A DNA stretch of 32,000 bases, taken from NCBI RefSeq assembly GCF_003945235.1, contig NZ_RSDW01000001.1, positions 5,850,001 to 5,882,000 on the forward strand, in the 5' to 3' direction. The notes beneath the pieces were generated by a model, which was not told the origin of the DNA, ran no database searches, and saw nothing but the letters and a program-made list of their open reading frames with translations. Shown piece after piece: positions 18,990 to 31,576 of the stretch (positions within the stretch are counted from its first letter, which is position 1; every line of letters starts with the position of its first letter). This DNA comes from Edaphobacter aggregans (lineage in GTDB: Bacteria; Acidobacteriota; Terriglobia; Terriglobales; Acidobacteriaceae). The translations under genes were made by a program, and so were the position numbers.

Positions 18990-19545
18990 GGCTACCATGC
19001 TACCCATAAAAAATGAAAATTGTCGGAACTGGCAAAAGGGCAGCGCTTAAGCCTGCTATTTCAGAGACACCAGAGATCGAGGGCGGCTAGGACTTCCATA
19101 TCAACTAGATTACTAACTGGTGATGTTGCCTTACTTACACCCGGCTACTATGTGCTTCACTTCCACGTGACGCAGATTGGTAGCATCGACATGGATTTGG
19201 ACCTTTACGGGAATAAGTACTACTAGCGGTCCTACACCACGGCCAAGCACCTTGCTGTTGCCTGGAACCTACTGGATTTTTCTTTCGCAGGATGCGGCGT
19301 AGTTTCCAAACTAGGCTCGGGTGGAGTATAAAGATTCGTCGTGCGGTATGCCTAAGACCCCGCGCGAAGGAATCGATGAATGTTTTGTTCTAAAGGTTGT
19401 TATTAGAACAGTCTTTCTAGATCCAGATATGAAGCCTCGGAATTGTTCTGGAGCTTCTGCCCGCCTTGGACGCGACAATAATTTTCGAAAAATTATGGGC
19501 CCCATTTTTAGATCCGCACATTGCGGAACTTCCAGGAGAAACCAT

Positions 19546-20241
19546 ATGAAGCTGCACTCAAACTTGTGCGCTTTGGGAGCGGTTCTGGCACTTACGACCG
19601 CTTTCACGTTCGCTAACACCATAACAATCGCAAGTCAGGCCGGGTCTGCTACCGGTGATACGATTTATGCCGCTACTACGGGAAGCGGAATCTTCGCTTA
19701 CCTTGGAAATATCGGCACTAGCTTCGCATTAAGCAATGTAACTCCGACCTGGGCGACTGCAATTCCGGGCTCGACTTGGGTCGGTATCTCTCCTACCGCG
19801 GGCCCCTCCGGTACGATCAATCCACAAATTGGTCTCTATACTTTCACCGTGGATCTGGGTAGCGGGCTGGCTGGTTACAGTGGATCGATCGGTGTTCTAG
19901 CCGACGATACAGCGAGCGTTTCGCTCAACGGCACGCTACTGATGGGGTTCGGCGGCGGTCTCGACAATCACTGCGAATCGACAGGCATCAACTGCCTGAC
20001 GGTGACTGATGTCGTGCTGCCCGCTTCGGCGTTCTTAGCTGGCGATAACACGCTAACTTTCCAAGTGCTCCAGGCTGGTACGGGCGCCCCAGGTGGAACG
20101 GGCGATCCTTCGGGTTTGGACTTCGCGGGTTCGATATCGAGTCCTGTGGGTACCCCTATCGTTCCGGAACCAAGCACGTTATTGATGCTCGGAACCGGGT
20201 TGATCGGTGGGGGCGTGCTGTTTCGTAGGATCCGGGCCTAG
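19546..20241 (+). CDS. PEP-CTERM sorting-domain protein (secreted, unknown function)
   Basis: AGGAGA RBS 6 nt before the ATG at 19546. Signal peptide: MKLHSNLCALGAVLALTTAFTFA. C-terminus VPEPSTLLMLGTGLIGGGVLFRRIRA gives the PEP motif, a TM helix and a basic tail. The track ORF start at 19321 is rejected. Confidence 0.85.
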   Translation: MKLHSNLCALGAVLALTTAFTFANTITIASQAGSATGDTIYAATTGSGIFAYLGNIGTSFALSNVTPTWATAIPGSTWVGISPTAGPSGTINPQIGLYTFTVDLGSGLAGYSGSIGVLADDTASVSLNGTLLMGFGGGLDNHCESTGINCLTVTDVVLPASAFLAGDNTLTFQVLQAGTGAPGGTGDPSGLDFAGSISSPVGTPIVPEPSTLLMLGTGLIGGGVLFRRIRA

Positions 20242-20343: not shown

Positions 20344-21027
20344 TCACCGGATGAGTGAGGCGAGGACTTCGGTGGGTTCGGGGCGGACTCGGAAGTCGGC
20401 GTGGGCTTGGGAGAAGAGGATGGTGTTGTCTTGTGCGATGACGAAGACGCCGGGGATGGGGAGGCGCCAGCTGGCTTCGGTGGCGGTTTGATAGTTTAGG
20501 CCGGCGTTGTTGAAGGGGATGTTGACGAGGATGGATTGGTAATAGCGGCGGTACTCGGGGGGGACGGTGTAGGCCAGGCCGAATTGTTCGGCTACGGCAG
20601 CTCCGGGGTCGGCGAGCAGCGGGTAGGTGAGGGCGTGCTGCTGGAGGGCAAAGTTGTTCTGACGAGTGGTCTGGGGGGAGATAGCTACGAAGAGTGCGCC
20701 GCGCTCGCGGAGTTGGGGGTGGAGTTCGCGCCAGGTTTCTAGCTCGGTGACGCAGTAGGGGCACCAGCGGCCGCGGAAGAAGTTAATGACGAGCGGGCCA
20801 AGGGCGAGGAGGTCGGCTGAGTTGACGGGTTTTCCGGTGCGGGCGTCTTCGAGGGCGAAGGCCGGGGCTTGAGTGCCGACGGGGAGGATCCGGTTTTCAA
20901 TGCCGCTGGCGAAGAGATCGCAGACCATTTGTTCGGAGACGGCGAGACGCTCGGGCTGGACCAGGGCGCGGGTGTTCTGGGTGATCTGGTCTAGCTGGTC
21001 TTGCAGGGATAGGGTGCGAGAGGTCAC
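20344..21027 (-). CDS. peroxiredoxin-like / AhpC-TSA family thioredoxin-fold protein
   Basis: 227 aa. Motif: PAFALEDARTGKPVNSADLLALGPLVINFFRGRWCPYCVTELETW (W-C-P-x-C redox motif). Confidence 0.8.
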   Translation of the reverse strand: MTSRTLSLQDQLDQITQNTRALVQPERLAVSEQMVCDLFASGIENRILPVGTQAPAFALEDARTGKPVNSADLLALGPLVINFFRGRWCPYCVTELETWRELHPQLRERGALFVAISPQTTRQNNFALQQHALTYPLLADPGAAVAEQFGLAYTVPPEYRRYYQSILVNIPFNNAGLNYQTATEASWRLPIPGVFVIAQDNTILFSQAHADFRVRPEPTEVLASLIR

Positions 21028-21052
21028 TTGTTAATTATAGGTGTGGAGAGAT

Positions 21053-21125
21053 TTTGCGCTTTGCGCGACCCACTCATGTCGCGATAAAGCTGCGCCATGA
21101 ATGGGCACCCCAAATTTGTGGCTGG
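21053..21125 (+). repeat. modular intergenic repeat, copy R1 (modules A+B, degenerate C)
   Basis: Sequence: TGCGCTTTGCGCGACCCACTCATGTCGCGATAAAGCTGCGCCATGAATGGGCACCCCAAATTTGTGGCTGG. It contains the GCGC-TTT-GCGC hairpin, plus a CCCACTCATG...CATGAATGGG stem ending in GGGCACCC. Confidence 0.75.
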
Positions 21126-21126
21126 A

Positions 21127-22032
21127 CTACATCGCTACGGTTTTGGTGGTGTCGTGGCAGGATGGGGTGGATTTGGTTGTCGAGGATTTCTTTGCGAGGG
21201 TTTTGTTGCTGGTGGTGGGGATGCTCGCGGTCTTCAGGTCTTTGAGGAGGGAGACGAGGCGTTTGAAGCCCTCTTCGCGGGCGGTCTTGTTTCCGGGGAC
21301 GGTGTTGCTGGGATCTACGCCGGCGCGCATGAAGCCGTGGCCAGCTCCGTCGTAGGTGACGGGTTCGAATCGTTTGCCAGCGGCCTTCATGGCTGCGATG
21401 GTCGAGGGGAGAGTAGCTCCGATGCGGGCATCATTGCCGGCGTAGAAGCCGAAGATAGGAGCGGTGATGGTGCTAACGTCAGCGGGGCCGGGGCCGTAGA
21501 AGACGAAGGCTGCGGAGAGGTCGTGGCGGTGGGTGGCGAAGGCGAAGGATTTGCCTCCACCCCAGCAGAAGCCTACGGTGGCGATTTTACCGTTACCGGC
21601 GGGGATTTTTTTTGCGAAGTCGGCTACGGCGTCGAGGTCAGCGGTGACCTGATCGGGATCGAGGCCGGAGACGGCTTTGGTGATGGCATCCTGGCCGGCG
21701 AAGGAATCGGTGCCACCGTTGTTGGGACCGGCACCGGAGAGGAGGTCGGGGGCGACGACGATGAAGCCGGCGGCGGCGAGGTCGTCGGCCATGGATTTGG
21801 CCCAGTCGGAGAGGCCGAAGATCTCGTGGATGAGGATGACGACGGGGACTTTGTCTTTTACTTCAGGATAGACGACGAAGGTTTGAACGGTGCGGTCGCC
21901 GCGCTTGATGGGGACGTACTCGCGGTGGCGAGGAGAGGCTTCGAGGCGGGCTTTGGCCCAGTCCTGTGCGTTGGCGGCGAGGGGTAGGATGAAAAAGATG
22001 GTAGCGAGAAGGCGGAGAGTGGCGCGGCGCAT
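21127..22032 (-). CDS. dienelactone hydrolase family protein (secreted)
   Basis: 301 aa with a signal peptide ...LPLAANAQ. Motifs: PVVILIHEIFGLSDW, nucleophile elbow GFCWGG, C-terminal DGAGHGF. It carries an unusual low-complexity tail of about 35 aa rich in Ser, Thr and Lys. Confidence 0.85.
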   Translation of the reverse strand: MRRATLRLLATIFFILPLAANAQDWAKARLEASPRHREYVPIKRGDRTVQTFVVYPEVKDKVPVVILIHEIFGLSDWAKSMADDLAAAGFIVVAPDLLSGAGPNNGGTDSFAGQDAITKAVSGLDPDQVTADLDAVADFAKKIPAGNGKIATVGFCWGGGKSFAFATHRHDLSAAFVFYGPGPADVSTITAPIFGFYAGNDARIGATLPSTIAAMKAAGKRFEPVTYDGAGHGFMRAGVDPSNTVPGNKTAREEGFKRLVSLLKDLKTASIPTTSNKTLAKKSSTTKSTPSCHDTTKTVAM

Positions 22033-22130
22033 GGGAGGAGTTTAGTCCCGCGTTGGATTGTGAGACAAGGAAGAAGTAACGCTATCGATCCGTGCGGATG
22101 TTGGGAATGGATGCTGGCTATACTGCCGGG

Positions 22131-22679
22131 ATGGAGAGCTTTCGTCTGCGAGTGGCTACGGCTGAGGACATGGCGGAGATTCGTGGAGTGATTAATGCGT
22201 CAGTGAGAGGATTACAGGCTAGGGATTATTCGGCTGCTCAGATTGAGGCGGCGCTGGCTACCGTATTCACGATTGATAGTCGGCTGATTGCGGATGGGAC
22301 TTATTTTGTTGCGTTGACTGAGAGTGGCGAGATGGCTGGGTGTGGTGGGTGGAGTAAACGGAAGACTCTGTATGGTGGGGACAATCAGGTAGAGAAGATT
22401 GTGCCTGCGCTGCTGGATCCGGCAGTGGATGGGGCGAAGGTAAGGGCAATCTTTGTGCATCCTCGGTTTGCTCGGATGGGGTTGGGGAGTTTGATTCTGA
22501 AGGCGTCGGAAGAGGCTGCTTTGGCGGCTGGTTTCAAGCGATTTGAGATGGGAAGTACTTTGACAGGGGTGGCTCTGTATTCGCTGAAGGGATATGTGGA
22601 GGTGGATCGTGTGGCGGTGCCGGTGGGGCAGGGCGAGACGATTGAGGTGGTAAGGATGGTGAAGGAGATTGTGGCCTGA
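22131..22679 (+). CDS. GNAT family N-acetyltransferase
   Basis: Acetyl-CoA-binding motif region: RAIFVHPRFARMGLGSLILKASEEAALAAGF. The start is taken at ATG 22131; the track ORF begins at GTG 22092. Confidence 0.8.
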   Translation: MESFRLRVATAEDMAEIRGVINASVRGLQARDYSAAQIEAALATVFTIDSRLIADGTYFVALTESGEMAGCGGWSKRKTLYGGDNQVEKIVPALLDPAVDGAKVRAIFVHPRFARMGLGSLILKASEEAALAAGFKRFEMGSTLTGVALYSLKGYVEVDRVAVPVGQGETIEVVRMVKEIVA

Positions 22680-22680
22680 C

Positions 22681-22714
22681 GCCCATTCCTCACGCGGCGA
22701 AGAATGGGCACCCG
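22681..22714 (+). repeat. modular intergenic repeat, copy R2 (module-B hairpin only)
   Basis: GCCCATTC-(13 nt)-GAATGGGC forms a perfect 8-bp stem, followed by ACCC. This shares the ..GAATGGGCACCC end of module B. It sits between the convergent GNAT and micro-ORF stops. Confidence 0.55.
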
Positions 22715-22730
22715 GCGTCCAATTGCGAAG

Positions 22731-22874
22731 CTAGATGACTTTGAGGAGGAGCAGGATGAGGACGATGGTTAGGATGAGGCTGATGCCGCCGCCGCCGTAG
22801 TAACCGAGACCTGGTCCCATGCGATATCCGCCAAAACCGAACACCAGAATCAGAACGATCAAAAGGATAAGCAT
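22731..22874 (-). CDS. DUF3309-like small membrane protein (47 aa)
   Basis: Absent from the ORF track, presumably because it is too short. GGAGA RBS about 7 nt upstream of the ATG at 22872-22874. Translation: MLILLIVLILVFGFGGYRMGPGLGYYGGGGISLILTIVLILLLLKVI. This is two hydrophobic helices joined by a Gly/Tyr loop, the pattern I associate with DUF3309. Confidence 0.6.
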   Translation of the reverse strand: MLILLIVLILVFGFGGYRMGPGLGYYGGGGISLILTIVLILLLLKVI

Positions 22875-22989
22875 TTATCTTTCTCCGTTGCACGAAGATT
22901 CGCGCTGGAGAATGTGATGCTGTTTTTCATCGGTCTGTAACGATTCGAAATATTTAGTTTTGCGGCGTCTTTACAGGCTGCGGATTGCA

Positions 22990-23382
22990 TCAAAGGGTGC
23001 GCTGTGCAGCGGTTTTCGAGTGCTGAAACGCGATTCCCGCTTTGAAGTTCTGGGCTATCCGTTGTGATTTGGCGATCACGATGGCGGCATGGTCCGGGGA
23101 TAAGACTTCGGTAGCGGTCTCGGCGAAGAGAGCGAGCCAGCGCTCGAAGTGGTCGGGATCGAGGGGGAGCTGGAGGTGGGTCATCATGGGGTCGCCTTTG
23201 TAGCGGCCCGTAGTGAGGAGGACCGTAGACCAGAAGTCTTTGAGGGTGGCGAGGTGATGGGGCCAGTCACCGACGATGGCGTTGAAGATGGGGCCGATGT
23301 CAGGATCGAGGCGGACCTTAGCGTAGAAGTGGTCTACCAGATTGCTGATCTCTTGCTCGGTGATCTTCTGTTCGGTGTTCAT
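22990..23382 (-). CDS. group III truncated haemoglobin (globin-like)
   Basis: 130 aa. Motif: LVDHFYAKVRLDPDIGPIFNAIVGDWPHHLATLKDFWSTVLLTTGRYKGDPMMTHLQLPLDPDHFERWLALF, typical of the trHb group III family. Confidence 0.8.
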   Translation of the reverse strand: MNTEQKITEQEISNLVDHFYAKVRLDPDIGPIFNAIVGDWPHHLATLKDFWSTVLLTTGRYKGDPMMTHLQLPLDPDHFERWLALFAETATEVLSPDHAAIVIAKSQRIAQNFKAGIAFQHSKTAAQRTL

Positions 23383-23400
23383 GGTGACCCTCCTGCGGGG

Positions 23401-23829
23401 TTAGTTCAATGTGGTGTCTTCTGGCAAGGGCTTGCCGATCTCCCAGTGGTGGCCGAAGGGGTCGACGACGCGGCCTATGCGCCAGCCGTATTCGTTGGTC
23501 ATGTTCCAAACGATGGTGGCTCCTACGGCGACCGCCCTTTTGAATACGGCATCCGGGTCTTCGACCGTCAGGATGATGCGGACTGTGCCGCCGCCGACAG
23601 ATTCGGGGCTGAAGTTCTTGTGTTCGGGAGATTCGTCGGCTAGCCAGAAGGCGGCCCCGTCTACGGAAAGCTGCGCGACTACCGTTCCGTCATCAGCGTC
23701 CAGGCGGAATAACTCGGTGGCGTCAAATGCTGCTTTGTAGAAGTCGACTGCTTTTGCTCCGTTTCGGACTGAAAGCATCGGCGCTATGGTGGTCTTCTGA
23801 TTGTCGGTGGTTTCAGAGAATTGGGTCAT
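23401..23829 (-). CDS. VOC (glyoxalase/bleomycin-resistance fold, PhnB-like) family protein
   Basis: Start ATG at 23829 (MTQFSETTDNQKTTIAPMLSVRNGAKAVDFYKAAFDA...). C-terminus: GWRIGRVVDPFGHHWEIGKPL. The upstream 28 codons of the track ORF are rejected. Confidence 0.8.
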   Translation of the reverse strand: MTQFSETTDNQKTTIAPMLSVRNGAKAVDFYKAAFDATELFRLDADDGTVVAQLSVDGAAFWLADESPEHKNFSPESVGGGTVRIILTVEDPDAVFKRAVAVGATIVWNMTNEYGWRIGRVVDPFGHHWEIGKPLPEDTTLN

Positions 23830-24001
23830 TGGAAATGTCCTCTCTCGGCAGATTCCTAAGGGCGACGCAGGGGACTTCAGGTTATCCCATGTCGTTGGCG
23901 TCGACGTTTTCATGACACTCTCCTCCCCGTATCAAAGTTCGCAAAGTATTCGAAGTAGAGACTTTAGGTCCAGACTTCTGTCTGACTTGTCTGCAATGAG
24001 A

Positions 24002-24025
24002 AAAGCCCGGTTTGAGCCGGGCTTT
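24002..24025 (-). terminator. rho-independent (bidirectional-looking) terminator downstream of the TetR gene
   Basis: AAAAGCCCGG-TTTGAG-CCGGGCTTT forms a 7-9 bp GC stem with an A-run on one side and a T-rich run on the other. It lies about 120 bp after the TetR stop. Confidence 0.6.
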
Positions 24026-24145
24026 CTTCTTTTCTACTAGGTCTAGTTTAACTGTGGTGTCAAGGTTTTCGGTGTGGAAAAGGTTGTTTCGGAACCGGTT
24101 CAGGGAGGATGTTCAGATGTGGGCCATCCGCCATGCTGCCGGAAT

Positions 24146-24805
24146 TCAGGAGGAGAGGCCCTTCTCGACCATGAGAATGAGGCGTTCGCTGAGGGCTGCG
24201 ATCTCTGCGGCCGTGGCGGTGTGGAGCGGACCGTCGATGACGAGGAAGGCGAGGCCGTGAACGGCAGACCAGGCGAGATACTCGGCGCGGGAGCGGTGGC
24301 GCGGGGGGAGGAGGCGATGGAGGACCATGAGGTCGAGCGCGTGGCTGAGGAGCTGGAAGGGATTGAGGCCGCTGGCACCGGTCTTCGCTTTGTCGGAGTC
24401 GCCAGCAACGGGCTGGGTGTTCGAGAAGGCGGTGCGGAAGAGGCCGGGCTGGTGGAGCGCGAAGGTGAGGTAGCCGATGCCGACGGCGCGGAGGTGGGCG
24501 CGAGCGAGAGCGGCTCCGCGGCGACGGGATGGGATGGCGGAGATCTCGGCCTCGATGGCGCGGGCTAGCTGTGAGAGGGCGTGGGCGCGGACGGCGGCGA
24601 GCAACTCGGCGTGGCTGGAGAAGTGACGGTAGGCGGCGTTGGGGGCGACGCCGGCGCGGCGTGTGGCCTCTCGGAGGATGATGGCCGCGGGGCCTCCTGT
24701 GCGGGCGAGCTCGACCCCGGCGGCGAGTAAGGTGCGGTGGAGGTCGCCGTGGCGGAAGGTGGTTCTTGCGGGGGTGAGCTTGGAGTTCTTTGCAGGCTTG
24801 AGCAT
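24146..24805 (-). CDS. TetR/AcrR family transcriptional regulator
   Basis: Start ATG at 24805. HTH region: FRHGDLHRTLLAAGVELARTGGPAAIILREATRRAGVAPNAAYRHFSSHAELLAAV. Confidence 0.85.
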   Translation of the reverse strand: MLKPAKNSKLTPARTTFRHGDLHRTLLAAGVELARTGGPAAIILREATRRAGVAPNAAYRHFSSHAELLAAVRAHALSQLARAIEAEISAIPSRRRGAALARAHLRAVGIGYLTFALHQPGLFRTAFSNTQPVAGDSDKAKTGASGLNPFQLLSHALDLMVLHRLLPPRHRSRAEYLAWSAVHGLAFLVIDGPLHTATAAEIAALSERLILMVEKGLSS

Positions 24806-24923
24806 CGTTGGTTGTGGACAGTGTACAGATGGTTCGGATACATTGCTGCATGTGAACGGTGTCCACATTTTAGAGATGGCGACCGGAGCAGATGAAGCGA
24901 CTTTTTTTCTGGAGGTTGGTGCG

Positions 24924-25634
24924 ATGACAAATCGAACGGTTGGAACGATGGTGCTTGGGACCGTGCTAGGTGTGATGCTTCTTGGCCTGGATGGGGTGGG
25001 GTGGGCCCAGGGAGCGAAGGCGCCGTATCCGGCGATGGCTCCGCTGGAGCAGTACCGCGTGGCGAGTGTGGCGGAGGAGGTTGCACTGGCGCGCAGCGCT
25101 GCGCCTGACTCTGTGAGCCGCGATGCGGAGGTGCTGGTGCTCGGGGTGCACGGCTACGAGACGGCGGCGAAGGGGACGAACGGTTTTGTCTGTGTGGTGG
25201 AGCGCTCGTGGGCGGACCCTTTCGACGACCCGGAGTTCTGGAGTCCGAAGGCGCGCTCGCCGCAGTGCTTCAACGCCGCTGCGGCGCGGTCGGTGTTGCC
25301 GGTGTACCTGAAGCGGACGGAGTGGGTGCTGGCCGGAGCGACGAAAGAGCAGATGCAGGAGCGCACGAAGGAGGCGGTGGCAAAGAAGGTCATCGCGGTG
25401 CCGGAGTTGGGATCGATGTGCTACATGCTGTCGAAGCAGGGCCATCTGAACGATAAGGCCGGCCACTGGCATCCGCACCTGATGTTCTTCCTTCCGACCA
25501 CGGCGGAAACGAGTTGGGGCGCGAACCTCAAAGACTCGCCGGTCTTCGCGGCGCAGTCAAACCCCGAGCCGGTGACGACGTTCTTTGTTCCGGTGGAGAA
25601 GTGGTCGGATGGGACGATGGCGGAGATGGAGTGA
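24924..25634 (+). CDS. secreted protein of unknown function, divergent from the TetR gene
   Basis: GGAGG RBS 8 nt before the ATG at 24924. Signal peptide: MTNRTVGTMVLGTVLGVMLLGLDGVGWAQG. No family recognised. Notable strings: GFVCVVERSW, CFNAAAARSVLPVYLKR, GHWHPHLMFFLP. Confidence 0.65.
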   Translation: MTNRTVGTMVLGTVLGVMLLGLDGVGWAQGAKAPYPAMAPLEQYRVASVAEEVALARSAAPDSVSRDAEVLVLGVHGYETAAKGTNGFVCVVERSWADPFDDPEFWSPKARSPQCFNAAAARSVLPVYLKRTEWVLAGATKEQMQERTKEAVAKKVIAVPELGSMCYMLSKQGHLNDKAGHWHPHLMFFLPTTAETSWGANLKDSPVFAAQSNPEPVTTFFVPVEKWSDGTMAEME

Positions 25635-25636
25635 TG

Positions 25637-25672
25637 GCGCGAAATGCCCACATCTCAGAATCGAGATATGCC
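25637..25672 (+). repeat. modular intergenic repeat, copy R3 (truncated A + variant B')
   Basis: Sequence: GCGCGAAATGCCCACATCTCAGAATCGAGATATGCC. It matches the R9 variant (CACATCTC-AGAATC-GAGATGTG) with one stem mismatch and starts 3 bp after the upstream stop codon. Confidence 0.65.
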
Positions 25673-25700
25673 TCTGAGTTGTAGAACGCTTTAGGTGAGG

Positions 25701-26140
25701 CTACCCGCCGATTTCGTCCATTAAAACTGTCCGCACCTTCACCCACTGTGAAGAGATCGCATTCCATCTTTTCGGATATTTTGCTCTGACCAGTGGCGAC
25801 GGATGTGCCGAAGTAAACAATGTGAGACCTGCCGCATTGAGATAGTGCTGGCTCTTGCAGCCTTGCCGCCAATCAGAACTACAGCGCGTAGCATCGGAAG
25901 TAACGTGATGAGTCCCTGTACGCAGGCGACGCCCTCGCGCAACTCTTGCCCCGTCACCCTCCGCGTTCCATTCCACCACGGAATGACGTTCCACGAGATG
26001 GTCAGTTTGCGGGGAATTCCTGCACGTTGCATAAAATCGAACGTCGCTTCCGCACTAGGATCATCATTGTTGCGACTGATGAATCCAGAGCCTTCTTCAC
26101 TAGCCGTCATTGGGCCGGTTTTTCGAACAGAAATAGCCAT
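25701..26140 (-). pseudogene. uracil-DNA glycosylase superfamily-like gene, frameshifted, possibly N-terminally truncated
   Basis: Frame A reads ...GPMTASEEGSGFISRNNDDPSAEATFDFMQRAGIPRKLTISWNVIPWW...LLPMLRAVVLIGGKAARA. Near 25850 the sensible reading moves to a second frame: QHYLNAAGLTLFTSAHPSPLVRAKYPKRWNAISSQW, which carries the UDG-type HPSP motif. The family assignment is from remembered motif patterns only. Confidence 0.5.
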
Positions 26141-26144
26141 CTTA

Positions 26145-26163
26145 TGTATGGGGCCGCCCACCG
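26145..26163 (+). repeat. modular intergenic repeat, copy R4 (module C only, degenerate)
   Basis: TGTATGGGGCCGCCCACCG, compared with the consensus TGTATGGGCCACCCACCG. Confidence 0.5.
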
Positions 26164-26250
26164 TCGATAAATCAGAAATTGGTGGGTAGTGTGATACGCT
26201 CTGCCGTATCCTGCAACCAAATTGAAATCCTCGTTAAGAAGGGACCAGCT

Positions 26251-26787
26251 ATGAAGCGCAAAAGTATGCTCAAGATTGCGAGGGCTATAGCGGTGCTCTC
26301 CGTCCTCGGCGTTGCGGCCGGTTACTCGCAGGAAAAGTACTCGTTGAAATCGCCGGACGGAATCGCGTTCTCGGACTTCAGAGGATACGAGGACTGGGCG
26401 GTGGTCTCCTCGGCCCGGACCGACGAAGTGCTCAAGGTGATTGTCGCGAATCCGATCATGATCCAGGCGTTCAAGGCCGGCTTTCCTGGGAACGGCAAGC
26501 CTTTCCCGGATGGTTCCAAGATCGCGAAGCTCCAGTGGAGTCCGAAGAAGAGCACGGAGGCCCCTTTCGTCGTGGATGTGCCGGATATCTTTAAACAGGC
26601 TTTCGTTATGGAAAAGGACAGCAAGAGATTTTCAAAAGACGACGGCGGATGGGGCTATGCGGTGTTCAATTACGACGCTGCAATGGACAAGTTCACGGCG
26701 GATTCCAGCCCGGTGAACTGCGGGACCAAGTGCCATGTGGCCGTGAAGGCGAAGGACTACATCTTCCACCCGTACCAGAAGCGTTGA
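26251..26787 (+). CDS. cytochrome P460 family protein
   Basis: Start ATG at 26251. Signal peptide: MKRKSMLKIARAIAVLSVLGVAAG. Motifs: FRGYEDWAVVSS, FPDGSKIAKLQW, MEKDSKRF..GGWGYAVF, and the C-terminal haem c site CGTKCH followed by DYIFHPY. Confidence 0.8.
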   Translation: MKRKSMLKIARAIAVLSVLGVAAGYSQEKYSLKSPDGIAFSDFRGYEDWAVVSSARTDEVLKVIVANPIMIQAFKAGFPGNGKPFPDGSKIAKLQWSPKKSTEAPFVVDVPDIFKQAFVMEKDSKRFSKDDGGWGYAVFNYDAAMDKFTADSSPVNCGTKCHVAVKAKDYIFHPYQKR

Positions 26788-27056
26788 ACCTCACCTGCCA
26801 CCGCCACGGTCGCGATCATTTTTTTGTTATCGGCGGCGTGTGGTGGGTTTTTAATTGTGCGTATTTTTTTTGTGTGGTGGCTAGTGGTAAAGGGCCGTTT
26901 TTGTGGGGGTTTTGGGAGGCAGCGCGCGCAAAACGTGGTGGTTGATGGTTACTTAGTGGAGAAAAGTGTGGCTAGCGTGGTAAGTGGACGGCGGTTTCCG
27001 GGGTTTGAAAAACATGCCACGTTCTTGAGATTTTTCTGTGGAAAAGTTGGGGAGTG

Positions 27057-27114
27057 CGGTTCGCGCTTTGCGCGCCCAGAGTTTGGTAGGTCGTTATGTA
27101 TGGGCCACCCGCCG
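27057..27114 (+). repeat. modular intergenic repeat, copy R5 (modules A + C, no B)
   Basis: Sequence: CGGTTCGCGCTTTGCGCGCCCAGAGTTTGGTAGGTCGTTATGTATGGGCCACCCGCCG. Confidence 0.7.
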
Positions 27115-27133
27115 CGCAGAATCCTGCAAACCT

Positions 27134-28141
27134 TTAGGAGAAGTCCAGCACGACCTTTTCCTGTCCAGCCTCACCATCGGCCAAGTGTACTGCCTCTTGG
27201 AAGTCCTTCAGTGGATACCGCACGATAGCTGGAGGCGTAAGCGCTCCGTTCGCCAACATGGTGAGAAGGTCGCTCGTCGCCGTTCGCACTTCGCCGAGCG
27301 GCTGGGAAGGAACCCAACGCGGAAGCCACCACCCGCGAACCGTCGCTGTCGAATAAATCAAACGCGGGGCGAAGAGCGGCATGAGGAATTTCGCGGGGTC
27401 TGTCTGCCGATGACTGGAGAGGGCTCCATAGACGAGCATGGTTCCAGCGGGAGCTAGGTTGCGGGCGACCTCTGCGCCGACGTCTCCGGCAACGCAATCA
27501 ATCGCTCGTTCAATGCCCTTGCCATCGGTCAATTCCTGCAGGCGTGCCCTGAGGTCCTCGTCGGCTGTGCAGATTATTTCGTTGCCTCCGAGGTTGCGAA
27601 TGATTGCTTCATGCTCGCGCCGCCGGATGACGTTGATTGTCTTGAATCGATACTGCTGCGCGAGTTGGAGCACGAACTTTCCGACGCTGGATGCAGCCGC
27701 TGTCTGCAGGAGCCAGTCGCCCTCTTTGAGTTTGTGCGTTGATAGGGTCAATGCCCATGCCGTCAAAGGATTGATGTAGGAAGCTGCGGCGGCGGCATCG
27801 TCCAGGCCATCTGGAACGGGTACGAGTTTATCTGCCGGGCAGACGATCTGCTCGCGCCAGGTGTTCCATGTGTCGATGAAGACTACGCGAGTTCCGACAG
27901 TGGGACTTTGCACGCCCGGGCCTACGGCCTCCACAATCCCGACGCCTTCAATGCCCGGGCTGGCTGGCAACTCCGGCTGATAGCCATAACGCCCGCGCAC
28001 CATGTGCAGGTCTGATGCGTTGATCGGGCTCAGCAGTACTCGGACGAGCGCTTCGCCAGAGGCCAAAGGCGGAGTCGGGATCTCTTCCAGCTTCAATACG
28101 CTCTTTGGTTCACCGGTTTCGCGAAAAGTTAATGCTTTCAC
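27134..28141 (-). CDS. MDR-superfamily NAD(P)H-dependent oxidoreductase (quinone oxidoreductase / enoyl reductase-like)
   Basis: 335 aa. Motif: MKALTFRETGEPKSVLKLEEIPTPPLASGEALVRVLLSPINASDLHMVRGRYGYQPELPASPGIEGVGIVEAVG, followed by a cofactor-binding region with the glycine motif AAASSVG. Confidence 0.85.
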   Translation of the reverse strand: MKALTFRETGEPKSVLKLEEIPTPPLASGEALVRVLLSPINASDLHMVRGRYGYQPELPASPGIEGVGIVEAVGPGVQSPTVGTRVVFIDTWNTWREQIVCPADKLVPVPDGLDDAAAAASYINPLTAWALTLSTHKLKEGDWLLQTAAASSVGKFVLQLAQQYRFKTINVIRRREHEAIIRNLGGNEIICTADEDLRARLQELTDGKGIERAIDCVAGDVGAEVARNLAPAGTMLVYGALSSHRQTDPAKFLMPLFAPRLIYSTATVRGWWLPRWVPSQPLGEVRTATSDLLTMLANGALTPPAIVRYPLKDFQEAVHLADGEAGQEKVVLDFS

Positions 28142-28225
28142 CGATAGCTCCCGGGCCTTTAGGTGACGGCTGATTCCGGCCGTGGATATTCTACGACTTC
28201 GGGGACCTCAAACTGGGCAGTGATG

Positions 28226-28312
28226 GCGGGTCACTTTGCCAACTCATGCGATGAGACCGCAGGAATGGGCACCCGAGGGTATGGTGACTTTTGATGACTG
28301 GGCCGCCCGCCA
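28226..28312 (+). repeat. modular intergenic repeat, copy R6 (degenerate A, B, C)
   Basis: Sequence: ...GGGTCACTTTGCCAACTCATGCGATGAGACCGCAGGAATGGGCACCCGAGGGTATGGTGACTTTTGATGACTGGGCCGCCCGCC. Confidence 0.7.
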
Positions 28313-28553
28313 GAGGTAATTGGGCGTATAGTGTTATGCGCCTGGGATGCCAAATGGAAATCCCGGCTAATTCCATCCCTTTCCGAGAGTTGTTTCGTGC
28401 GTTTTTCTAACGCCTCTTTCCCTCGGTACCTCGGTAATGAATCGCAGAAGCGCCTTGCTTTTGCGAATGCCAGCCAGTTAAAGACACGTCCGTTTTGGGC
28501 CGTTTGAGCCTGACTGAATCTCTGGACAAAAATGCGCAAAAGGAGAACTTCAA

Positions 28554-29378
28554 ATGAAGCCACAGCAAGTTGTCAAAACGACGGCGGCGTTTCTCGTAAC
28601 TCTGGGTGCGATTGTTCTGGTAGGAACCTGGAGCACTTCGCCGCGTGTACACGCACAGAACGATCAGGGCGACGATGAGGCGTCACTGATCCGCATCGGT
28701 TACCAGATCGCGCCTGTTCCCCTGAATTTGGCTGGGAAGGACCGTGATTTGGTGGGATTGGGCAGCTATCTGGTCAACGCTGCCGGCGACTGCAATGGTT
28801 GCCACACTTCGGGAGGCCCTCCAAACTTCAACTACGCAAATAATAAGAATCCCTACTTTGGCCAGCCGGAAAAGGTCGACCCGACCACTTATCTGGGCGG
28901 AGGTTCAGACTTCGGTCCGGCGGTTCCCCCAAGCGCCGCTGTGGGCGGGTTTCCTCCGGGATCCGAACCACCTTCTTACCCACCCGCAGAATATGGAACA
29001 TATGTGGGGCCAGACATTATTGCCCGCAACTTGACGCCGGATAAGACTGGGCGGGCGGAGGGCGGCCACACGCTTGCGGAGTTTAAGGAGATCATCAGGA
29101 CCGGCAAAGATTTCGACCATCTCCATCCGACCTGTACGTCCGCCTTGCCGACCCCCACGCCGGCGAACTGCCTTCCGCCTCCCGTCGACGGCGATCTTCT
29201 GCAGGTCATGCCGTGGCCAACTTTTAAGAACATGACTGATCATCAGATCACTGCCATCTATGAATATCTGAGCGCCATTCCGTGCATCGAAGGCCCGACG
29301 GACCCGAATAACGTATTGCACAACGATTGCGGCACAGAACAGAAACCGCCTAAGCCGGGGAGTTGGAAGAAACAGTGA
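28554..29378 (+). CDS. secreted mono-haem c-type cytochrome domain protein
   Basis: AAGGAGA RBS upstream. Signal peptide ...TWSTSPRVHAQ. Haem site CNGCH in YLVNAAGDCNGCHTSGG. A distal Met context (LQVMPWPTFKNMTDHQITAIYEYLSAIP) resembles the cytochrome subunits of periplasmic dehydrogenases. Confidence 0.7.
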   Translation: MKPQQVVKTTAAFLVTLGAIVLVGTWSTSPRVHAQNDQGDDEASLIRIGYQIAPVPLNLAGKDRDLVGLGSYLVNAAGDCNGCHTSGGPPNFNYANNKNPYFGQPEKVDPTTYLGGGSDFGPAVPPSAAVGGFPPGSEPPSYPPAEYGTYVGPDIIARNLTPDKTGRAEGGHTLAEFKEIIRTGKDFDHLHPTCTSALPTPTPANCLPPPVDGDLLQVMPWPTFKNMTDHQITAIYEYLSAIPCIEGPTDPNNVLHNDCGTEQKPPKPGSWKKQ

Positions 29379-29447
29379 TCACAGTACCGTAAATCGCCCG
29401 GAGTCAAAGGAACGCACACCGATTTTGATGTGCTGGGTTTAAGATAT

Positions 29448-29547
29448 CGGGTTCGCGCTTTGCGCGAATGACCCACTCATGCGATGAGACTGCATGAATG
29501 GGGCACCCGAGGTGTCGGAGCTTTCGATGTATGGGCCACCCACCGAC
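29448..29547 (+). repeat. modular intergenic repeat, copy R7 (full-length reference copy A+B+C)
   Basis: Sequence: CGGGTTCGCGCTTTGCGCGAATGACCCACTCATGCGATGAGACTGCATGAATGGGGCACCCGAGGTGTCGGAGCTTTCGATGTATGGGCCACCCACCGAC. Module A is TTCGCGC-TTT-GCGCGAA (7-bp stem). Module B is CCCACTCAT...ATGAATGGG enclosing CTCAT-GCG-ATGAG. Module C is GTCGG...CCGAC around ATGGGCCACCC. The copy is followed by TTCTTTTTTT. Confidence 0.85.
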
Positions 29548-29674
29548 TTCTTTTTTTGGACTACGAACGTTGAGTAGTCGGATGCAATCCCCCGAATGGG
29601 TTATACGCCATCGATTTTTTGCTCAAATTTTGCCTGTAGGATGCCGATAGATAACTCAAATTAAAAGGGTCCCC

Positions 29675-30280
29675 ATGCGTTTGGTTTTTTCACTGCTTGT
29701 TTTTGTCGCTTTATGCTGCACTTTCAACATGGCTGCGCATGCAGATACCATTACAACCTTCACGCTTACGCACGGCTCAGATACCTTCCAGTTTTCGATC
29801 TCCGATTCGACGCCTGTGAGCTCTGGCCTTAGGTTTCCTGGTACTGTCGAGGAGTTCGATTACAGGGAGCCTCTCACTGTTAATGGGACGATGCATTTTC
29901 CAATTTCGGGCGACCTTGCTGTCGAAGGTGTAGAGAGCCTTCAGCCGCTCGGCGTTGGTGCTGAGTTTTATGTCGGTTACCAGACCGTGGAGGATGGGGT
30001 TTCGTACAGTCACTATTTATTCGAACAAGGACCTCAGATCTTTACCGACGTGAACGGCATAGCTGTGTTCACACCGGGATCGATCATCTTCCCGCAGGTT
30101 GTTTCCGAAGACTTTGACACTTTTGACACTAACGTGTCGCAGGTGTACCACGGTTCCGGCGATACGCTAGTGATCACGCAGACCGATTCCTCTGTTCCCG
30201 AGCCATCGAGCCTTGCTCTGCTTGGTACAGGGTTGGCCTGCGGGGCGGGCCTGGTTCGTCGGCGTCTCTTCGGGCAATAG
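29675..30280 (+). CDS. PEP-CTERM sorting-domain protein (secreted, unknown function)
   Basis: 201 aa. Signal peptide: MRLVFSLLVFVALCCTFNMAAHA. C-terminus: VPEPSSLALLGTGLACGAGLVRRRLFGQ. Confidence 0.85.
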   Translation: MRLVFSLLVFVALCCTFNMAAHADTITTFTLTHGSDTFQFSISDSTPVSSGLRFPGTVEEFDYREPLTVNGTMHFPISGDLAVEGVESLQPLGVGAEFYVGYQTVEDGVSYSHYLFEQGPQIFTDVNGIAVFTPGSIIFPQVVSEDFDTFDTNVSQVYHGSGDTLVITQTDSSVPEPSSLALLGTGLACGAGLVRRRLFGQ

Positions 30281-30333
30281 GGAAACCAGAGATGCCGTCG
30301 ACTTGAACATCTTTCGCATCGGGGCGTACTGAC

Positions 30334-30371
30334 GCACCTGTGGGTTTGAGGATGTATGGGCCACCCACCGG
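30334..30371 (+). repeat. modular intergenic repeat, copy R8 (end of B + C)
   Basis: Sequence: GCACCTGTGGGTTTGAGGATGTATGGGCCACCCACCGG. It ends 1 bp before the stop codon of the RAYT-like ORF. Confidence 0.7.
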
Positions 30372-30372
30372 G

Positions 30373-30835
30373 TCAGGCCTGGGTGATCAGGACTGGGTTG
30401 GTTCGTTCAGGAGATAGTGGCGATAGGATGACCAGGGGCCAGTCTTCTGGGCGGGAGACTAGGCCTCGAGTGACTGGATTGCGGTGCATGTACTTCAACT
30501 TTTCTACTCGTTTGTTGTGAGTGATGACGTTGAAGTCGTAGTAGCGGGTTTGCCAGAAGGGGCGCTCCGTGAGGCGTCTTGAAACGGAGATCTTTAATGC
30601 CTGCAGGGCTTTTGAGAGAGGGGCGACGGGAGGTTCGCTCACGAGGAGGTGAACGTGTTCGGGCATTGCGACGTAACCGAGGACGTCAAACTGGTAATGC
30701 CTGCGGGCGTTCAAGAGAGTCGAGGACGATGTCTTTTGCGGACGAGGTGTTGAGGTAGGGTTTGCGGTGGTAACAACTGAAAGTGATGAAATGGTCGTCA
30801 CCTTCCTGTTGGTATCGCTTGAGGCCCAGCGGCAT
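30373..30835 (-). pseudogene. REP-associated tyrosine transposase (RAYT) / IS200-like Y1 (HUH) transposase gene with at least two frameshifts
   Basis: The ATG at 30835 gives MPLGLKRYQQEGDDHFITFSCYHRKPYLNTSSAKDIVLDSLE, then shifts frame near 30705. It continues as ARRHYQFDVLGYVAMPEHVHLLVSEP (HUH motif) ...FWQTRYYDFNVITHNKRVEKLKYMHRNPVTRGLVSRPEDWP (catalytic Tyr motif). Removing one base of the GGGG run at 30435-30438 restores the family-typical end DWPWSSYRHYLLNEPTQS with a stop at 30387. Confidence 0.75.
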
Positions 30836-30853
30836 GGGTTGATTTTAGGGTGT

Positions 30854-30947
30854 CGGGTTCGCGCCTTGCGCGAATGATCCCACATCTCAGAATCGAGATG
30901 TGGGGCACCCACATTTTGGGGTTGGTTAGATGTGGGCCACCCGCCAC
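30854..30947 (+). repeat. modular intergenic repeat, copy R9 (full length, variant B')
   Basis: Sequence: CGGGTTCGCGCCTTGCGCGAATGATCCCACATCTCAGAATCGAGATGTGGGGCACCCACATTTTGGGGTTGGTTAGATGTGGGCCACCCGCCAC. B' is a perfect 10-bp stem, CCCACATCTC-AGAATC-GAGATGTGGG (30879-30904). The copy begins 19 bp upstream of the RAYT-like ATG. Confidence 0.85.
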
Positions 30948-30994
30948 TGCAAAACAACTGTAGGTTCTTTAACTTAGCGAGGGACGATCAGCTT

Positions 30995-31030
30995 GGGCCG
31001 TGAGGTTTTTGTGTATGGGCCACCCACCCC
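30995..31030 (+). repeat. modular intergenic repeat, copy R10 (module C)
   Basis: Sequence: GGGCCGTGAGGTTTTTGTGTATGGGCCACCCACCCC. Confidence 0.65.
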
Positions 31031-31078
31031 GAGAAAAACTGCTGCAGGATGGGCCCAAAGAGAAGTAGTATTGCCGCC

Positions 31079-31576
31079 ATGAGAAAGCTGGGCGTCTTGG
31101 TAGGGATATTCGTGTTGTGCCCTGTGGCTGTCTCAGCCCAGTTGCTCAATGTGAAGATTATCCAACGGCAGAACGGGGAGACCCAGTACACATACCAAGT
31201 GGCAGGTCATTCAACATCCACCGGTAGTGGGAATGCTAACTGCTACAGCAGCGGAGACACGGTAAATTGCAACAGTTCCAGTAGTACTAACACAAGTACT
31301 ACAGCTCCGCAGATGATTTCATACAGTGTCGCTGGCGCCACGTACTCGCTGTTACTTCCCGATGGCCGAGTAGCTGTTGTGAACTGCACAAGCAAGTTCG
31401 CCGAACACTTCGCTGGGCCGGCGGGAAACAAACGGAGTTGCCGGATGCCAATTGTGGATAAGCTCCAAGCCGAGTTCAAAGGCAAGAACGCTAAGCTAAT
31501 TTGGCCGGTGAGCCTTGACGGCAAGAAGATGGAATCGGAGACTTACACAATTTTGGGTATTCTCCCCGCATCGTGA
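31079..31576 (+). CDS. secreted protein of unknown function
   Basis: Start taken at ATG 31079 (MRKLGVLVGIFVLCPVAVSAQ signal peptide). It has a Ser/Thr/Asn-rich middle with four Cys. No family recognised and no strong RBS. Confidence 0.55.
   Translation: MRKLGVLVGIFVLCPVAVSAQLLNVKIIQRQNGETQYTYQVAGHSTSTGSGNANCYSSGDTVNCNSSSSTNTSTTAPQMISYSVAGATYSLLLPDGRVAVVNCTSKFAEHFAGPAGNKRSCRMPIVDKLQAEFKGKNAKLIWPVSLDGKKMESETYTILGILPAS

Follow-up and report, generated by a model that had tools for sequence, protein, structure and literature searches.

Known REP-type systems and the Edaphobacter repeats

Repetitive extragenic palindromes (REPs) and bacterial interspersed mosaic elements (BIMEs), together with their transposase TnpAREP, or REP-associated tyrosine transposase (RAYT), constitute the systems termed REPtrons, described from E. 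coli, Stenotrophomonas, and Marinomonas, in which a Y1 HUH gene of the RAYT class is flanked by its own palindromes (PMC3333891, PMC8266576, PMC2817692). The REPs of Marinomonas cluster around their own RAYT gene, and the mechanisms of REP dissemination are poorly understood (PMC8266576). For species with several REP families, the accessible text of Di Nocera et al. 2013 gives each family its own REPtron, and it describes an Acidobacteria-specific clade of repeat-flanked Y1 transposases (TIRYT, TIRtron) with members in T. saanensis, G. mallensis, A. capsulatum, and K. versatilis (PMC3733652). Here we analyze a stretch of 32,000 nucleotides (nt) from Edaphobacter aggregans (contig NZ_RSDW01000001.1, positions 5,850,001 to 5,882,000; the whole stretch is hereafter called the window), in whose second half an earlier note, made from the sequence alone, had picked out a family of modular hairpin repeats close to a Y1 transposase gene. 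We find it very probable that these repeats are the REP-type elements of a REPtron, i.e., a domesticated Y1 HUH transposase (RAYT) with its cognate hairpins. The note's comparison with mosaic elements of the REP and BIME kind is borne out in the form of a REP/RAYT system, whose modules (A, B, and C) combine as A+B, A+C, B, or C.

The locus shares with REPtrons the RAYT-class gene flanked by its own palindromes, a conserved tag, though of another sequence, 5' of the palindrome on the gene strand, extragenic copies, a separate RAYT for each REP type, and, as in Marinomonas (PMC8266576), clustering near the RAYT gene. It departs from them in having a fixed composite unit of three parts (A, B, and C), in the placement of >90% of the copies on one compositional strand, and in RAYT flanks that, in this lineage, are generally direct, not inverted. 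In Pseudomonas, a single domesticated RAYT and co-evolving cognate hairpin repeats have reportedly been found by Bertels and Rainey, and the present locus likewise combines a domesticated RAYT with a population of cognate hairpin repeats; however, the Pseudomonas REPIN is an inverted doublet folding into one long hairpin, and inverted doublets are not seen here. Pneumococcal BOX elements (boxA-boxB-boxC) are also modular three-part intergenic repeats and resemble ours in their variable module content and in the tandem repetition of one module, but they have no sequence relation to them and are not known to have an associated Y1 transposase.

A three-part unit with conserved structure

The canonical unit is ~95 nt long (~130 nt with a 5' extension) and comprises hairpin A, hairpin B, and tail C. 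Hairpin A (GGTTCGCGC-TTYG-GCGCGAATG) has a 7-bp GC stem and bears no sequence relation to hairpin B, a 10- to 12-bp stem whose foot (CCCA/TGGG) and 3' tail (GCACCC) are invariant and whose inner stem varies; in the window, its 3' end reads TGGGGCACCC. This hairpin occurs in the window as type 1 (CCCACTCATGC-GATGAGACT-GCATGAATGGGG) and type 2 (CCCACATCTC-AGAATC-GAGATGTGGGG). Tail C (motif TGTATGGGCCACCCRCC) comes after a free spacer and has the sequence of the 3' arm and tail of its accompanying B, reading ATGTATGGGCCACCC alongside type-1 B and AGATGTGGGCCACCC alongside type-2 B. The spacer-plus-C unit can recur in tandem (three times in locus L100), and about half of the copies in other genomes carry an extra conserved stretch of ~35 nt 5' of A (..GGCATGGTTGGATTTTATCGnnTGGGGAGGGAAGGC), which itself resembles C and contains the RAYT start codon in complementary form. 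On the strand that encodes RAYT, B and C open with GGGTG[C/G]-CCCA..., that is, with a conserved tag 5' of the palindrome. This is the layout of classical GTAG-REPs, whose palindrome follows a conserved tetranucleotide (GTAG or GT[AG]G); here, B reads GTGC-CCCA... and C reads GTGG-CCCA..., with GGGTG[C/G] as the invariant tag. The 10-nt core (TGGGSCACCC) is invariant across genera. Among hairpin-A variants, TTCGTGC is found throughout Tunturiibacter, but several genomes are mixed, so that genome specificity is partial. Full copies give good folds of single-stranded DNA whichever strand is taken (z = −3.9 to −5.2), and decayed part-copies give no good DNA fold. The three modules as defined in the earlier note stand; the enclosure of C by GTCGG...CCGAC that it also mentioned is peculiar to one copy.

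A variant in which C forms the 3' arm of a complete hairpin (CCCACACAAGC-AAA-GCTTGTATGGGCCACCCGCC) is present in L009, L012, L033, L083, L121, and L123, which come from other Acidobacteriota and Planctomycetota metagenome-assembled genomes (MAGs); its opposite strand is a canonical GTGG-tagged REP. This variant suggests that the Edaphobacter tail C is a hairpin without its former 5' arm.

We scanned one genome per species (596 Gb) for TGTATGGGCCACCCRCC and recovered at least 120 stretches; locus counts below are among the matches listed. These are mostly from Edaphobacter, Tunturiibacter, Granulicella, Terriglobus, and Acidobacteriaceae MAGs, with lone matches in other phyla at the chance expectation for a 17-mer in 596 Gb. 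Forty full copies from many genomes could be aligned end to end, and the covariance model trained on them, of the kind that the earlier note had proposed along with a scan of related genomes, finds at least 146 copies in at least 73 loci. In the 146-copy alignment, 95% of the cells are paired versus 83% after shuffling, double-change cells number 259 versus 49 expected (0 of 500 shuffles as high), and sliding the partner column drops pairing to 33 to 57%. Compensatory changes are present in both stems, and at two positions of hairpin A, CG, AU, and UA are exchanged without wobble intermediates. G-T and A-C mispairs are equally frequent (57 and 53) and hence give no pointer to RNA over DNA or to either strand. 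The whole window has no Rfam match at the gathering score, and at E values up to 10, the region from 20.9 to 31.2 kb yields three chance matches only, none of them on a repeat. Comparison with the literature on REPs and miniature inverted-repeat transposable elements (MITEs), suggested together with the Rfam check, turned up the REP/RAYT (REPtron) precedent. A plasmid collection searched with the full unit gave no match. We conclude that the repeats are a real family with conserved structure.

The identity of the unit between genera is 84 to 95%, and that of its neighbors is lower (P460, 85 to 87%; cytochrome c, 62 to 83%). As a control, we used 80 metagenome loci (450 kb) picked solely by a homologue of the window cytochrome c gene (52 to 89% identical). 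These 80 loci contained no model match, no RAYT, and four core motifs, which is the chance level. The closest of them (89%) is repeat free on both sides of the cytochrome c gene, where the window has one copy on each side. Short-read assemblies may drop some repeats, yet contigs of 15 to 220 kb are also repeat free. Copy density is eleven per 10 kb in the window and 3 to 5 per 20 kb in the RAYT surroundings of E. albus and of an Edaphobacter MAG chromosome (L206).

Linkage of the repeats to RAYT genes

The Y1 gene of the window (30376-30838, minus strand) is spread over three reading frames. HVH and YMHRNP motifs are visible in its translation, and the repaired gene scores 104 bits with the NF047646 model (cut-off, 80) versus 34 bits with the IS200 model (cut-off, 55). 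Compared with a 97%-identical intact gene on a metagenome contig (L207), it has lost 2 nt at 30708/30707, gained 1 nt near 30438, and lost 1 nt near 30398. On account of these three indels, the window RAYT is a pseudogene; two of them are homopolymer indels that could be read errors, and the 2-nt deletion stays. Intact 154-aa orthologues with up to 96% identity are known, and >5,000 homologues were recovered, the closest annotated as REP-associated tyrosine transposases of Edaphobacter.

RAYT homologues are present in at least 14 of the loci picked by the C motif alone, versus 0 of the 80 control loci. Each of them (14 loci including the window) has a full A-B-C unit 20 to 30 nt upstream of its start codon, on the opposite strand, and further repeat copies 3' of its stop codon. 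In Edaphobacter-like genomes, the flanking copies are generally on the same strand; inverted flanks are seen in L206 and in Terriglobia that are more distant (L045, L034, L097, L024, and L123), the latter loci being like TIRtrons in this respect. As to differences from TIRtrons, the A-B-C unit, spread through the genome, strand bias, and direct flanks do not figure in the accessible text of PMC3733652, which describes just inverted flanking repeats and a GGGGWSAS motif that we could not match to TGGGSCACCC.

The RAYTs fall into four groups, each with a distinct hairpin-B subtype, in 14 of 14 loci. The first (L100, L053, L031, and L054, with fragments in L039 and L073) is 78 to 90% identical internally and carries type-1 B in all six; the window RAYT, 54% identical to this group, carries type 2. 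The pair L034 and L097 (70% identical) has CCCACTCATCGC as hairpin B, and the pair L123 and L024 (67% identical) has CCCACTCAAGCC. Having predicted beforehand that close homologues of the window RAYT would carry type 2, we fetched three loci to test this, namely, E. albus (L205; RAYT 86% identical to that of the window), the Edaphobacter MAG chromosome L206 (82%), and the metagenome contig L207 (96%). In all three, a type-2 A-B-C unit lies ~20 nt upstream of the RAYT gene. This pairing of RAYT and hairpin B agrees with the situation in species with several REPtrons, as far as it is described in the accessible text of PMC3733652. Among the roles suggested earlier for the repeats, that of substrates of the adjacent Y1 transposase is the best supported; the identity of the RAYT, its adjacency, and the subtype pairing all point to it as the probable one.

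Repeat copies in the window and their position relative to genes

The window holds eleven copies or part-copies between 21.05 and 31.03 kb, all on the plus strand and two of them complete. Run on the whole window with filters off, the covariance model gives eight matches at E < 0.1, each on the plus strand (range, 21051-31028), to which three fragments were added by eye (22683-22714, 25637-25668, and 26143-26163). In 1 to 21 kb, no model match is better than E = 0.18. Across the whole window, the core TGGGSCACCC occurs seven times on the plus strand, every time beyond 27 kb, and never on the minus strand (0.20 expected by shuffling; 0 of 100 shuffles get to 7), and the hairpin-A motif occurs four times, also on the plus strand (0.01 expected). 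The model and the motif counts thus agree with the earlier picture of at least ten intergenic copies in one orientation, confined to the second half, with none in the first 21 kb; the full copies that had been placed near 29448-29547 and 30854-30947 are delimited by the model at 29450-29544 and 30856-30945. Small open reading frames (ORFs) reading MGHP or EWGTR, pointed out as spurious, are by-products of the conserved motifs. Every copy lies between supported genes, and several are only a few nt from stop codons. In the following list, L001 is one of four metagenome contigs (L001-L004) that are 96% identical to the window from 25.5 to 29.5 kb.

Copy 1: 21051..21115, plus strand; degenerate hairpin A (TTTGCGC-TTT-GCGCGA), then type-1 hairpin B (CCCACTCATG...CATGAATGGGCACCCC), between the start of the AhpC-like gene and the stop of the DLH gene; model match 21051-21143, plus strand, 19.6 bits, E = 0.008; DNA fold z = −2.8
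Copy 2: 22683..22714, plus strand; solely hairpin B (CCCATTC...GAATGGGCACCC), 4 nt past the GNAT stop codon; found by eye and included in the DNA folding
Copy 3: 24107..24133, plus strand; solely type-2 tail C (AGATGTGGGCCATCCGCC); repeat family D17; model match 24064-24132, plus strand, 15.5 bits, E = 0.056
Copy 4: 25637..25668, plus strand; 3' remnant of A (GCGCGAAATG) and type-2 hairpin B lacking the end of its 3' arm (CCCACATCTCAGAATCGAGAT); the point where homology to L001 stops
Copy 5: 26143..26163, plus strand; solely tail C (TTATGTATGGGGCCGCCCACC), found by eye; its 3' end is the start of a P460 gene block conserved in five related genomes
Copy 6: 27051..27113, plus strand; hairpin A joined directly to tail C; model match, 32.4 bits; left edge of an ADH segment missing from L001
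Copy 7: 28239..28311, plus strand; type-1 hairpin B and tail C, both decayed; repeat family D2; model match 28216-28311, plus strand, 52.8 bits; right edge of the ADH segment, at a place where L001 has A, B, and C contiguous
Copy 8: 29450..29544, plus strand; full A, type-1 B, spacer, and C; model match, 102.5 bits; DNA fold −23.9 kcal/mol, z = −3.9; synteny with L001 is lost at the last base of C
Copy 9: 30341..30369, plus strand; solely tail C, 3 to 6 nt past the 3' end of the RAYT pseudogene; repeat family D4; model match 30323-30369, plus strand, 18 bits
RAYT pseudogene (REP-associated tyrosine transposase): 30376..30838, minus strand; three reading frames; NF047646 and Y1_Tnp; alignment with L207
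Copy 10: 30856..30945, plus strand; full A, type-2 B (CCCACATCTC-AGAATC-GAGATGTGGGGCACCC), and type-2 C (AGATGTGGGCCACCCGCC); model match 30856-30945, plus strand, 76.6 bits; fold z = −4.3; starts ~18 nt from the RAYT start codon, divergent from the gene; the cognate copy of this RAYT subfamily
Copy 11: 30997..31028, plus strand; additional tail C unit 3' of copy 10; repeat family D1; model match 30963-31028, plus strand, 17.1 bits

By crude ORF and gene calls, 136 of 154 copies lie outside ORFs, and, with the element as reference, the spacers that hold them are antisense tandem (44), sense tandem (20), convergent (27), or divergent (27). A scan for stems followed by T-runs found eight terminator-like sites in 20.5 to 32 kb, none of them at a repeat. 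The copies lack T-tracts and occupy spacers of all types, and hence are not terminators; more generally, a transcript-end element would be sense and would shun divergent spacers, so that the spacer counts do not support such a role. The sole good intrinsic-terminator-like hairpin in 20.5 to 32 kb (24002-24025) has T-runs on both strands, separates the VOC gene from the TetR gene, and has no relation to the repeats.

These counts bear on the possibility that the repeats are cis-acting RNA elements (terminators, 3'-end stabilizers, or attenuators) to which the RAYT link is incidental. Such elements would account for hairpins that are stable and covarying and for the copies a few nt from stop codons; E. 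coli REPs stabilize upstream mRNA, and one copy is followed by a T-run (29549-29558). That T-run, described in the earlier note, is real but unique to this copy and no feature of the family. Nor do the copies keep a consistent strand or position with respect to genes: divergent spacers are as frequent as convergent ones, and antisense exceeds sense. Orientation is predicted far better by strand composition than by genes (see below), G-T mispairs do not exceed A-C mispairs, hairpin A shows no wobble intermediates, and Rfam has no match. We therefore consider an RNA role very unlikely, and the earlier suggestion of transcript-end stabilizers or terminators is not upheld.

Orientation and strand composition

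Core motifs fall on the strand of the seed 309 times and on the opposite strand 31 times, and model matches are on one strand in 57 of the 61 loci with matches (on both in just 4). There is no inverted partner near any window copy. We accordingly rejected both a BIME arrangement, as REPs do not alternate in the window or in those 57 loci, and a REPIN arrangement, as inverted partners are missing near the window copies and cores are so unevenly distributed between the strands.

The strand that carries the element is rich in G and T, with a positive total skew in 61 of 67 loci. The GC skew at third codon positions (GC3 skew), taken in the sense direction, is +0.12 for genes on the element strand versus −0.49 for genes on the other strand. 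A comparison restricted to the 47 loci with genes on both strands cancels the sense-strand baseline, i.e., gene orientation, and here the element strand is the G3-rich one in 44 (median, 0.64; P = 2.5 × 10−10). Thus, orientation tracks a strand-specific asymmetry that is independent of transcription, and we conclude that the shared orientation follows strand composition, not genes.

By the usual rule, the G-rich strand would be the leading-strand sequence and hence the lagging-strand template, which is single stranded at the fork. Gene placement is at odds with this rule here: in 42 of 57 loci, there is more coding DNA on the C-rich strand, and ffh and RAYT lie on the C-rich strand in three genomes. 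Coordinates in complete-genome records give conflicting answers on the leading strand, the record starts being unknown; no tRNA genes were found in 60 loci and no dnaA or dnaN in the loci examined, and for leading-strand composition there are just weak phylum-level figures (PMC4613354). Either way, the bias is real and calls for an explanation based on how Y1 enzymes handle single strands, or on something similar.

Polar chromosome-architecture sites, read by a host protein that senses replication direction (compare KOPS/FtsK, Chi, and Ter) and centered on TGGG-SCA-CCCR, would also produce such a bias. This proposal could draw on the >90% co-orientation with strand composition, the invariance of the 10-nt core between genera, and flips in GC3 skew right at a repeat cluster in three loci. 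We regard it as most improbable. Unlike KOPS and Chi, which occur throughout genes, the copies are clustered and confined to intergenic DNA; they decay freely to fragments and are missing from 450 kb of related contigs, which is too patchy for a core chromosome function, and the covariation of RAYT and subtype is left unexplained.

With regard to the skew itself, its sign flips inside 5 of 63 repeat loci (L205, L118, L106, L092, and L107), each time from minus to plus; the three flips at a repeat cluster are at ~10.5 to 11.7 kb in L205, ~3.4 to 4.9 kb in L118, and ~2.0 to 2.7 kb in L106. These may be inversion breakpoints or replication landmarks. Edaphobacter-type genomes (L206 1-20468, L205 1-20465, L031, and L118) have a very strong GC3 skew whichever way transcription runs (0.45 to 0.65 in absolute terms across 20 kb of L206), and the presence of most genes, including ffh, on the C-rich strand conflicts with the pairing of a G-rich leading strand with a preference of genes for the leading strand. 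The window is a compositional mosaic: in 20.3 to 25.6 kb (20344-25634), the plus-strand GC3 skew of the genes is +0.30 to +0.79 whichever strand codes, with GC3 up to 0.82, and the sugar locus (1-20241) and the genes in 25739-31576 have a skew near 0. Such a pattern suggests native DNA with blocks of more recent acquisition on either side. The GNAT gene (22092-22679), compared with that of E. albus (L205 14966-15553; proteins 77% identical), is inverted relative to AhpC-DLH, and its sense GC3 skew is +0.79 in the window versus +0.13 in E. albus; synonymous sites appear to re-equilibrate following inversion.

Repeats at the borders of gene-block differences

At the place where L001 has A, B, and C contiguous, the window has A-C, the ADH gene, and B-C; hence, its ADH segment is located between the A and the B of a unit that is contiguous in L001. 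Past the last base of the next C, the window continues with a PEP-CTERM gene and L001 with an unrelated 424-aa gene, followed by ffh. A further segment (25668-26163), which extends from within a B hairpin on the left to a C end on the right, is swapped relative to L001. Repeat modules delimit the P460 and cytochrome c blocks on both sides; the P460 block begins at most 2 nt from a C end in the window, and repeats of varied makeup border P460 in four other genomes. E. albus and L206 share a gene order of two tyrosine recombinases, ffh, (DUF4145), and RAYT, and RAYT is separated from AhpC/DLH by 1.2 kb in E. albus, by 6.4 kb in L206, and by 8.3 kb in the window. In E. albus, the AhpC-DLH block has the reverse orientation, and an inversion also distinguishes the GNAT gene of the window from that of E. 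albus. Wherever the window differs in structure from its closest relatives, the difference has a border in or beside a repeat module, which, on the basis of these sequence comparisons, supports the earlier suggestion that the repeats may be recombination hot spots. The breakpoints are scattered within the unit and hence fit recombination or nicking at dispersed homologous hairpins better than one site-specific crossover.

Gene blocks bordered by hairpins of one orientation also call to mind cassette sites of a tyrosine recombinase, akin to integron attC sites, with the blocks between them as cassettes. Successive copies are separated by one to three genes across 10 kb, the blocks of close relatives differ with breaks at copies, and two tandem tyrosine-recombinase genes lie 2 to 4 kb from RAYT in E. 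albus and L206, with a repeat between them in L206. The sites of chromosomal integrons, too, are folded single strands with an orientation tied to replication, and the orientation of an attC array relative to replication governs its stability; arrays of attC sites in sedentary chromosomal integrons are thus like the present repeats in having one-orientation folded single-strand sites with variable gene blocks between them. Nonetheless, the consensus lacks RYYYAAC...GTTRRRY ends, the intervening genes face both ways, and VOC, globin, P460, and cytochrome c, which lie between copies, are also syntenic in repeat-free relatives. The breaks fall after C, between A and B, and inside B, not at one crossover point; neither IntI nor any other integrase or recombinase gene is present in the window, and none lies near most repeat loci. 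We rejected attC on the grounds of its end motifs and the missing integrase and judge cassette sites to be extremely unlikely.

Other observations concern the genes at these borders. The tandem recombinase genes, XerC/D-like in domain layout, lie beside ffh and RAYT at 5676-7592 in L205 and 4805-6836 in L206, where one repeat copy separates them, and would map past the right end of the window. A 32-nt piece of the 3' coding part of ffh is present at 30303-30334, immediately to the left of copy 9 and of the 3' end of RAYT; ffh is intact at this site in L001, and in E. albus and L206 it is located 5' of RAYT. The 424-aa gene of L001 (2775-4049), which has no Pfam match, directly follows a repeat in place of the PEP-CTERM gene. 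The window encodes two PEP-CTERM-anchored proteins, at 19321-20241 (ending ...VPEPSTLLMLGTGLIGGGVLFRRIRA) and 29675-30280 (PF07589 match).

Comparison with IS200/IS605 elements

Insertion sequences (IS) of the IS200/IS605 group (IS608 and ISDra2) and their hairpin-ended MITEs would have in common with the present system Y1 HUH chemistry on folded single strands, and they resemble it in their direct-orientation hairpins and in an orientation bias tied to replication. The repeats could accordingly be nonautonomous derivatives (MITEs or palindrome-associated transposable elements) of a true IS200/IS605 element, with A and B as left and right subterminal hairpins, inserted by peel-and-paste into the lagging-strand template. 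Two hairpins on one strand in direct orientation, breaks exactly at the 3' end of C, and the extension with the RAYT start codon in about half of the copies, as if they came from a gene-proximal master, would all fit, as would the strong strand bias, which is known for IS608 and ISDra2 (PMC6006769). However, the protein is of the RAYT class (104 bits versus 34 bits, under the cut-off, for IS200); A and B are unrelated, whereas the ends of IS608 share one hairpin; neither flank has a conserved target tetranucleotide; and, unlike a mobile IS, the RAYT gene is found in three genomes at the same conserved chromosomal position, after ffh. Profiles of the flanks of 66 copies show just the unit's own 5' extension and partial extra C units. 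Given the unrelated hairpins and the lack of a fixed target in these flanks, we rejected an IS200/IS605-derived MITE, an origin that we judge to be extremely unlikely.

A putative mode of action and its implications

Returning to the REPtron, we propose that RAYT would bind the folded B hairpin and its tag on single-stranded DNA and would nick and rejoin nearby. Such nicking and rejoining could seed, trim, and duplicate modules, which would account for the A+B, A+C, B-only, C-only, and tandem-C forms. The restriction to one strand might result from the availability of single-stranded DNA at the fork or from which orientation survives, and the copies might serve as portable sites of homology or nicking at which gene blocks are gained, lost, and inverted. 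With the window RAYT dead, the type-2 copies that belong to it are relics, and for the type-1 copies another RAYT, encoded outside the window, would be needed.

Several points weigh against this interpretation. RAYT binding, cleavage, and the active strand are all matters that we infer. The tag is GGGTG[C/G], not the GTAG of known REPtrons, and modules and copies are direct, unlike the alternating arrangement of BIMEs and REPINs. The flanks of the 66 copies show no conserved target or duplication, and no clean pair of filled and empty sites was found among the loci compared. Copies from different genera are as similar to each other (84 to 95%) as copies inside one genome, which fits constraint and recent spread equally well. 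Finally, the E. coli enzyme acts on the tag-bearing strand (PMC3333891, PMC8266576). If this holds here and the G-rich strand is the leading one, the substrate strand would be on the leading-strand template, the opposite of IS608, and the bias would look as if the protected orientation had survived, an argument that has also been made for chromosomal integron arrays. Should the leading-strand rule run the other way in this clade, the layout would match IS608.

What had been noted in Acidobacteria, going by the accessible text of PMC3733652, is only the transposase clade and its flanking repeats. The features peculiar to the present family are the directly oriented three-part unit, the non-GTAG tag, the strong strand lock, and a hypervariable gene region adjoining a RAYT whose place is fixed. 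On the practical side, the repeats create spurious small ORFs, mark rearrangement-prone spacers, and probably break short-read assemblies. To our knowledge, almost all work on REPs and RAYTs has been on Gammaproteobacteria, where inverted pairs mask strand preference. In this family, which occurs in abundant soil Acidobacteriaceae, the units are single and directly oriented, and strand preference is therefore visible, and strong; moreover, the matched pairs of RAYT and hairpin (type 1 and type 2) suit tests of specificity. It is possible, though on balance we are inclined to doubt it, that the family is a natural record of RAYT action at the fork, its strand lock stemming from RAYT-dependent insertion into, or loss from, one template strand. 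If so, it would provide a direct genomic handle on how REPs spread and, with it, a RAYT-centered hot spot that assembles strain-specific gene blocks.

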